A DNA stretch of 41,071 nt from an uncultured virus (IMG/VR IMGVR_UViG_2522125174_000001) (IMGVR_UViG_2522125174_000001), one strand, 5' to 3'; positions 1-1,049 are shown, numbered from the stretch's first letter. A program made the numbers and translations. Notes: generated by a model from the letters alone, not told the origin.

Positions 1-1049
1 AGCTTCACCGTTTGATCATCACTTCCAGATGCAATCCACTGTCCGTCGCTTGAGAACGCTACACTCGTCACATAATCCGTATGCCCGGTATAGGTATGAG
101 CTAGGGTGCGTTCGCCCGCTACATGGAACAGCTTGACAGTGTTATCAAAACTTCCAGACGCGAGCCATTGCCCATCGCTTGAGAACGCTACACTATTCGC
201 ATCTTTCTCATGCCTTTCATAGGTATGGATTTTTTGGAAATTCTCTGTTTCATAAAGATGAAGAGCATTTCCTTCTATCACAGCCAGCCAGCGTCCATCT
301 GGCGAATAGCAACAAGCTCGAACTGTGTCTTCCATTTCTAAAGTAAGTTTTTCACCAAACTCTACCCTGGCTAAATCAGCTCCATCTAAATTGACTCCAC
401 GTAGCCAAGCACCCGTCCAATTCACTCCTGTTAAATTGGCTCTTTGAAATTGCGTAGAATCAAATACCCCATAACTTAAATCGGCGCCAGGTACGCGTGT
501 ATCACTGAAATCCTTATTTTTAAATTGCACGCCAGCTTTCACTAATAACGTCAGCGCATTAGCTGCTATAGATTGCACCTCTTCTGTTTTGGACCGTTCT
601 ACCCAGTTCAACAATTTCTCTTCTAGTTGCGCATTTTGTTGGACTTCTTTTTGTAAAAATCTAAATATCTCTGCATCATTAACAAGACATACCAACTCAA
701 AAAGGGCTGCTCTCTCTACAACTTGATCGAGTTGCCCTGAATCCGATAACTTTTGCAACTGACTCAATGCAAATTCCTTTAACTCTCTATCCGAACCCAT
801 TAAAGTTCCTTGATATTGAGCCTGAATCTTTTCTTTAATTAGGTGGAGCTTCAGAGCGGGCGCTTCTATAGGCTCACCATTGCGAGTCACTGTAGTCAGT
901 GCTTTAAACAAATCCTGCCGACTCGAAAAATCCAGCCACTTTTCTATCTCTTCTCGAATTTCTAAGGGTAGCGAAAGGAACGATGGTTTTACGGTCTTTT
1001 GTGCTGCTGGATAAGGCGTAATGGCAGAATTCGAAATGGAAGTGAGCAT
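1..1049 (-). CDS. F-box-like / pentapeptide-repeat / WD40 protein, putative secreted effector (3' end runs off the window; absent from the ORF track)
   Basis: Manual translation from ATG 1049: MLTSISNSAITPYPAAQKTVKPSFLSLPLEIREEIEKWLD (F-box-like LxxLPxEI...I..L), then AANALTLLVKAGVQF...RVPGADLSYGVFDSTQFQRANL (pentapeptide), then WD40 blades (GHTDYVTSVAFSSDGQWIASGSDDQTVK). The frame is open to base 1. Confidence 0.85.
   Translation of the reverse strand, partial: MLTSISNSAITPYPAAQKTVKPSFLSLPLEIREEIEKWLDFSSRQDLFKALTTVTRNGEPIEAPALKLHLIKEKIQAQYQGTLMGSDRELKEFALSQLQKLSDSGQLDQVVERAALFELVCLVNDAEIFRFLQKEVQQNAQLEEKLLNWVERSKTEEVQSIAANALTLLVKAGVQFKNKDFSDTRVPGADLSYGVFDSTQFQRANLTGVNWTGAWLRGVNLDGADLARVEFGEKLTLEMEDTVRACCYSPDGRWLAVIEGNALHLYETENFQKIHTYERHEKDANSVAFSSDGQWLASGSFDNTVKLFHVAGERTLAHTYTGHTDYVTSVAFSSDGQWIASGSDDQTVK

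Follow-up and report, generated by a model that had tools for sequence, protein, structure and literature searches.

Results

Genes and features of the locus

The window, by which we mean the whole stretch of DNA that was analyzed (41,071 nucleotides), opens inside a minus-strand gene for a protein with pentapeptide and WD40 repeats, referred to below as the short gene, and also contains a NACHT-bearing paralogue, the end of a third paralogue, and a prophage:

3..1049, minus strand: 5' 349 codons of the short gene (NACHT-less N-domain/pentapeptide/WD40), which continues past the window start
735..1049, minus strand: N-domain, residues 1 to 105, specific to the Mycoavidus clade
930..980, minus strand: motif like F-box helix 1, FLSLPLEIREEIEKWLD, residues 24 to 40, with L27, P28, E30, and L39 nearly invariant
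525..734, minus strand: helical linker, residues 106 to 175, homologous to the linker that follows NACHT in the NACHT paralogues
357..524, minus strand: pentapeptide-repeat region, approximately residues 176 to 231 (Pfam, BLASTP)
3..356, minus strand: first WD40 blades, residue 232 onward (Pfam, DNA repeats)
1395..36529: temperate prophage between the two paralogues, integrase to spanin (context, outside the gene)
15628..16407, plus strand: gene of the prophage for a canonical F-box protein, situated between the two terminase genes (small and large subunits)
36610..40476, minus strand: NACHT-pentapeptide-WD40 paralogue, 1,288 amino acids (Pfam, BLASTP)
40673..41071, minus strand: C-terminal end of a third paralogue, a 1,244-amino-acid NACHT-pentapeptide-WD40 protein completed in public record G001

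The short gene lies in an open reading frame (ORF; 3 to 1052, minus strand) that runs off the window edge, 349 codons of the gene being inside the window; family alignment and comparison of upstream regions place its ATG at 1049, the same start as in all relatives. The protein N-terminus, which reads MLTSISNSAITPYPAAQKTVKPSFLSLPLEIREEIEKWLD, comprises a leader rich in S, T, and P (residues 1 to 22) followed by helices at residues 29 to 38, 41 to 52, 64 to 74, 77 to 86, and 88 to 103, and the helical linker beyond the N-domain was predicted at pLDDT values of 76 to 90. Pfam recovered WD40 repeats (E 1.2e-28) and pentapeptide repeats (E 2.6e-7, residues 200 to 230), and at the DNA level the WD40 part contains two copies of a 98-nt unit that are 76% similar and spaced 129 nt apart. 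No Sec-type hydrophobic leader was found in the sequence of the short protein.

In the 1,288-amino-acid neighbor, Pfam identified a NACHT domain (E 2.3e-12, residues 156 to 312), pentapeptide repeats, and 13 WD40 stretches. BLASTP aligned residues 100 to 350 of the short protein with residues 519 to 766 of this neighbor, with 110 of 253 positions identical (43%) at an E value of 2e-54, and all of the motifs on which the original prediction had based its claim of homology to the post-NACHT half (AANALTLLVKAGVQF/AANAITILIKAGIQF, PGADLSYGVFDSTQ/PGADLSFGMFDSAQ, FGE, and VRxCxYSPDG) fall inside the alignment. Residues 1 to 99, by contrast, had no BLASTP similarity to the 1,288-amino-acid protein, and no NACHT, NB-ARC, or P-loop family was matched by Pfam in residues 1 to 160 at an E value of ≤10; the homology thus begins at about residue 100, and the assertion that a short N-terminus has replaced the entire NACHT domain also holds. 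In the NACHT paralogue, the WD40 repeats are 126 nt long (36821 to 38500) and 78 to 93% identical to one another at the DNA level, a pattern that fits an ongoing exchange of repeats.

The paralogues constitute an array broken up by mobile elements. In G001, the third paralogue occupies positions 8910 to 12644 (1,244 amino acids); positions 1 to 12246 of that record run beyond the window end and also hold transposase genes of the IS type and the remnant of a second phage end that is 80% similar to window positions 34769 to 36480.

Bacterial source and prophage

The gene features are as originally described, but the organism is not a fungus: the gene is bacterial, runs on the minus strand, and has its nearest genomes in Mycoavidus. 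The closest genome matches of the short protein were two contigs of a Mycoavidus cysteinexigens metagenome-assembled genome, with 65% identity over residues 1 to 349 and 74% over residues 1 to 140, and positions 4692 to 41071 of the window are 99.6% identical to G001, a provirus record. Judged by these matches, the source is a Mycoavidus-like endofungal bacterium; two papers (PMC9815663, PMC11291939) describe Mycoavidus as an endosymbiont of Mortierella-type fungi.

The prophage that separates the short gene from the 1,288-amino-acid gene is complete, myovirus-like, and approximately 35 kb long. A tyrosine integrase gene (1650 to 2723) adjoins the short gene and a spanin gene (35987 to 36529) lies at the other end; its genes also include those for an excisionase, Gam, SSB, Sak4, a CI-like repressor, the portal, protease, and major head proteins, the two subunits of terminase, tail sheath, tape measure, baseplate, fiber, and endolysin. 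At the left end there is a cut-off phage ORF (1395 to 1613) that matches positions 4 to 66 of the 259 of phrog_5059. Comparison of positions 1040 to 1700 with 35650 to 36700 revealed no att-like direct repeat with a common word of ≥10 nt, a repeat scan across the window found no att repeats, and no tRNA gene that could serve as an integration site is present in the window. Two other phage ORFs on the minus strand deserve mention: one in the early region (7258 to 8241) contains approximately 20 copies of an 18-nt, six-residue repeat at 7515 to 8036 and matches two PHROGs without an assigned function, phrog_7964 and phrog_5070, and one beside the excision module (3301 to 4635) encodes 444 amino acids that have no PHROG match.

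The product of the gene at 15628 to 16407 matched PF00646 (E 4.2e-7; 30.0 bits against a cutoff of 20.5) and PF12937 (28.1 bits) and no PHROG entry. The gene resembles a moron, carried by a phage of an endofungal bacterium and directed at eukaryotes.

A NACHT-less protein family of the Mycoavidus clade

A phmmer search with residues 1 to 104 against 1.84 billion representative proteins returned 23 matches at an E value of ≤0.001, of which one was a low-complexity false match and one had a different C-terminus; in the remainder, the domain is situated at the very N-terminus. Full-length relatives are 567 to 928 amino acids long and possess the linker, pentapeptide repeats, WD40 repeats, and a common C-terminal motif, and the family alignment is collinear over the first 175 residues. 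A profile of the N-domain found 36 matches, every named one of them from Mycoavidus and annotated only as a pentapeptide-repeat, WD40, or NTPase-like protein; matches to the family profile reached E values of 1e-44 and better. In G002, a Mycoavidus genome of 2.8 Mb, the N-domain occurs 28 times, the copy nearest to that of the window being 79% identical, and, of 61 genomes of the bacterial family that were sampled with the N-domain profile, 6 contained it, all of them 1.9 to 2.8 Mb in size. Two paralogues (L006, in G002, and L007) reside beside housekeeping genes with no phage nearby, one with aspartokinase, hflK/C, and hisZ as neighbors and the other with an ABC transporter. The short form is therefore a real multigene family confined to the Mycoavidus clade, and its N-terminus is not an eroded NACHT domain, the outcome that would have overturned the original proposal, but a conserved domain with which intact proteins of approximately 560 to 930 amino acids begin.

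One module on several heads

The linker and pentapeptide region (residues 101 to 240), used as a module query, was found at 59 places in G002. We cross-tabulated by hand the N-termini, or heads, to which these copies are joined, using the N-domain matches, the NACHT matches (23 in all in this genome), and fetched upstream DNA:

N-domain: 25 of 59 copies
NACHT: 21 of 59 copies (19 assigned from their coordinates and 2, at contig ends, inferred from the sequence)
Third helical class (MLARFSARLTEL...): 12 of 59 copies
Long helical N-terminus of another kind: 1 of 59 copies

At least three kinds of N-terminus are thus found on the module, and its shuffling, foreseen as an exchange between an NLR switch and an SCF adaptor, extends to a wider set of NACHT and NACHT-less heads than was proposed. 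That one recognition module moves between different heads is supported by this distribution. Members of the third helical class are found at loci L070 to L083, and at L072 their MLARFSARLTEL domain is tandemly triplicated. The NACHT-PPR-WD40 architecture common to Mycoavidus and Mortierellomycota is in print (PMC11291939); a NACHT-less class of the module is not mentioned in the literature that we searched.

Resemblance of the N-domain to an F-box

The suggestion that the short N-terminus carries an F-box-like motif held for its first helix. The signature LPxEIxxxIxxxL is present, with L27, P28, E30, and L39 nearly invariant and spaced as in F-box helix 1. An alignment by hhalign of the N-domain with the Mycoavidus F-box profile gave a probability of 30 to 32% (P of 5 to 6e-4) over 26 to 41 columns, and its score of 23.0 was reached in none of 200 column shuffles (maximum, 17.9) or by the reversed profile (7.8). 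With a hidden Markov model built from the bacterium's own F-boxes, no N-domain ORF exceeded 8.3 bits, and 5 of 33 ranked among the top 66 of 1,971 ORFs where approximately one was expected, all five aligning at the helix-1 motif. Neither the alignment nor the ranking is independent evidence, because the same resemblance had prompted the F-box idea.

Direct profile searches, the check by which the idea was to be judged, did not find an F-box. The Pfam models (PF00646 and PF12937) matched none of nine N-terminal sequences at an E value of ≤10 and, in a six-frame search of G002, only 1 of the 28 N-domain copies (E 0.28 to 0.67), below the cutoff and confined to the first half of the model. A profile of 27 N-domains yielded five PDB matches at an E value of ≤10, none of them an F-box protein; the best were PMF1, MgtE, and FliG, in which LPxE also heads a helix. 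A control profile of 16 canonical F-boxes of the same bacterium, on the other hand, retrieved Skp2 (E 1.3e-6), FBXO31, Cdc4, FBXL5, and FBXW7/8 from the PDB, as well as Legionella AnkB (5k35_A, E 0.009). No relative with both the N-domain and a Pfam F-box annotation was found among the domains listed for the 36 profile matches.

In the first helix, the hydrophobic residues of the N-domain form one stripe (I31, I35, and L39), and the polar residues R32 and E36 stand where the canonical F-boxes of the bacterium have the second hydrophobic residue of a pair; the remainder of the N-domain is conserved as well, with a signature peculiar to it, TTVTRxGEPIDSPxLKLHL. On the evidence of these comparisons, the first helix resembles F-box helix 1 and the domain as a whole is not a recognizable F-box, in keeping with the reservation made at the outset that just the first half of the F-box consensus was evident.

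Structure models pointed in no clear direction. A model of 175 residues had a mean pLDDT of 68, with low values in the motif region, and a model of the domain alone (110 residues) was helical with a mean of 73; helices 29 to 38, 41 to 52, and 64 to 74 scored 36 to 52 in the former and 67 to 86 in the latter. Foldseek found no match for either model at an E value of ≤0.001, the F-box region of Cdc4 being among its weak matches (E 6.3 to 7.1, 25 to 26% identity), and a wide search with VIA had a best Z score of 4.3, with Cdc4 at Z 2.9 and a root mean square deviation of 11.2, and no significant match. The fold searches are compatible with both the presence and the absence of an F-box fold. The ESM Atlas produced no usable match for residues 1 to 110. 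The Skp1 family PF01466 had no match in G002, a result that carries no information, as there was none in the control genomes either.

F-box repertoire and delivery context

Canonical F-boxes are abundant in this bacterium. G002 contains 15 PF00646 matches over the cutoff, compared with none in 14 control genomes, and they head ankyrin (ANK) and leucine-rich-repeat (LRR) proteins; Pfam F-box matches were obtained from all six genomes with the N-domain and from 7 of the 55 others (13 of 61 sampled). The small, endosymbiont-sized genomes G002, G004, G056, and G058 have 9 to 15 Pfam-significant F-box genes each, again on ANK and LRR proteins. In the literature that we searched, no paper treats Mycoavidus together with F-boxes. 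None of the 59 module copies in G002 carries a canonical F-box, and none of six large F-box ORFs from two related genomes (five ANK and one LRV) carries WD40 repeats.

Two type III secretin genes over the cutoff are present in G002. The sequences TTCG-N15-17-TTCG and GGAAC-N15-18-CCAC are type III promoter boxes; neither was found in any of 23 upstream regions, which is a weak test. There is a likeness among the N-termini of the N-domain family (MLxPISxS), F-box/LRR proteins (MTNPINSS and MPPINSTS), and the window NACHT protein (MLPINPS) (starts at 1049 and 40476; L011, L015, L056, and L061), and a leader or a signal for secretion may be common to them; the impression arose post hoc and goes no further because the N-termini of the NACHT paralogues are diverse, most of the others having no MLPINPS-like start. 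Overall, the genomic surroundings are suggestive, raising the plausibility of the F-box idea above the level set by the profile tests.

Discussion

The architecture of the short protein, its homology to the NACHT paralogues, the copy numbers of the family, and its restriction to one clade are matters of observation, and from this architecture we infer a role as a two-part adaptor without a switch, to which we assign a probability of roughly one-half. Family members carry the helical-linker/pentapeptide/WD40 module of the bacterium's NACHT-pentapeptide-WD40 proteins, and a conserved helical N-domain of approximately 105 residues is situated where the NTPase switch would be. We suggest that the variable WD40 propeller binds a target and that the protein is constitutively docked on a partner by its N-domain. 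This would most likely serve the interaction with the fungal host, although a host-directed role is favored only slightly over a role inside the bacterium. The N-domain is read as a distinct docking domain because of its single hydrophobic stripe and its own conserved signature; this domain may descend from an F-box.

The alternative that fares best holds that the N-domain is a true, strongly diverged F-box and that the protein, after delivery to the cytosol of the fungus, binds Skp1 as an FBXW-like SCF substrate receptor, thereby providing a re-targetable degradation family beside the canonical F-box/ANK and F-box/LRR proteins. We regard this as possible but improbable. It would account for the nearly invariant helix-1 residues, for an N-terminal position that is also that of the bacterium's canonical F-box proteins, and for the hhalign score that no shuffle attained, and it is compatible with the co-occurrence of Pfam F-boxes with the N-domain in every genome that has the latter, with the canonical F-box in the window's own prophage, with the secretin genes, and with an architecture that parallels those of Cdc4 and FBXW7. 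Nevertheless, no direct test delivered an F-box profile match, the single G002 copy below the cutoff being the nearest approach, and hhalign re-scores the resemblance from which the idea arose. Divergence is not the rule in this bacterium, since its other F-boxes have stayed close enough to the canonical form for their profile to retrieve Skp2 and Cdc4; the N-domain has polar R32 and E36 at the second hydrophobic positions and a second half with a signature of its own, and LPxE heads helices as unrelated as those of MgtE and FliG. Moreover, canonical F-boxes and the module, or WD40 repeats, kept apart in all of the ORFs that were compared.

A broader scheme, which as a whole we also consider doubtful, would make the N-domain a diverged docking box for a host adaptor of the Skp1 or Elongin-C type, through which the endosymbiont would load the cullin ligases of the fungus with approximately 25 WD40 receptors per genome. 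In this scheme the propellers would diversify by repeat shuffling, canonical F-box/ANK and F-box/LRR proteins, one of them phage-borne, would work alongside, and the same module would be wired to NACHT switches and exchanged with host NLRs. In a variant, the NACHT-less forms would be secreted as decoys to dampen the xenologous NACHT-pentapeptide-WD40 receptors of the host.

Somewhat less probable still is the proposition that the NACHT-less proteins, acting within the bacterium, regulate the NACHT-pentapeptide-WD40 proteins as sensor-only forms or serve as their decoys, either by competition for shared ligands (phage proteins, for example) or by tuning activation. The module is indeed common to these proteins and to 21 NACHT paralogues of the same genome, in tandem or close arrays; the prophage between two paralogues indicates that phage pressure exists, and bacterial NACHT proteins are known phage defenses (10.1101/2022.07.19.500537). 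However, this explanation leaves unaccounted for some 25 copies of a strongly conserved N-domain with its own signature, to which the N-termini of the NACHT paralogues have no counterpart, and the restriction to an endofungal clade, together with co-occurring eukaryote-like F-box, ANK, and LRR genes, points toward the host.

That the short form is debris, a NACHT gene cut by the adjoining prophage or an eroded NACHT remnant, is very improbable: the gene does begin approximately 350 nt from the prophage end, next to the cut-off phage ORF, but truncation and erosion are both rejected because the family is conserved, multicopy, and partly located in phage-free contexts, with 28 G002 copies, and copies in five further genomes, of the same N-terminus at the head of intact proteins, two of them beside housekeeping genes, because residues 1 to 99 resemble neither the NACHT protein nor, at an E value of ≤10, any NTPase family, and because a displaced NACHT half could not fit at the other prophage end, where approximately 80 nt separate the spanin gene from the stop codon of the 1,288-amino-acid gene.

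We therefore return to an NLR-like recognition module on a distinct helical docking head as the preferred reading. The module is not tied to the NACHT switch and is reused on two other N-termini in approximately 37 further genes per genome; one of these alternative N-termini begins like an F-box, in a bacterium whose canonical F-box repertoire includes a prophage gene. The role of NACHT-pentapeptide-WD40 proteins in the Mycoavidus/Mortierella symbiosis is stated to be an open question in PMC11291939, and the findings on the module, combined with the F-box repertoire, offer a concrete and testable route to it through the host partner of the N-domain and the targets of the propeller. If the partner proves to be Skp1, the proteins would amount to a large natural family of re-targetable degradation adaptors.

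Among known systems, the closest are the NACHT-PPR-WD40 NOD-like proteins of Mycoavidus (PMC11291939, PMC9815663): they have the same linker, pentapeptide repeats, propeller, and C-terminal motif, with 43% identity, and the genes are found in the same genomes in tandem arrays, but the short gene has a 105-residue helical N-domain in place of the NACHT NTPase. The order of parts is like that of Cdc4, FBXW7, and beta-TrCP, with an LPxEI docking element, a helical linker, and a WD40 propeller; in contrast to these proteins, the N-domain fails F-box profiles and a pentapeptide beta-helix precedes the propeller. Fungal HET-E/NWD proteins, which combine NACHT and WD40 domains, have hypervariable WD40 repeats that are highly alike at the DNA level, a likeness taken to allow fast change of specificity. 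Similarly high DNA-level likeness is seen in the WD40 repeats of the neighboring NACHT paralogue, whereas the short gene is bacterial, contains a pentapeptide insert, and has no NACHT domain. The GALA proteins of Ralstonia are bacterial F-box effectors, and we know of no AnkB, GALA, or chlamydial effector with a binding module in common with NLR-like proteins. The parallel with the bacterial F-box effector AnkB of Legionella (PMC2790608), with the expanded F-box families of amoeba-symbiotic Chlamydiae (PMC4209131), and with GALA lies in the setting, that of intracellular, eukaryote-associated bacteria with F-boxes on repeat domains, and the difference lies in the box itself, which is canonical in those effectors and is not so in the N-domain.
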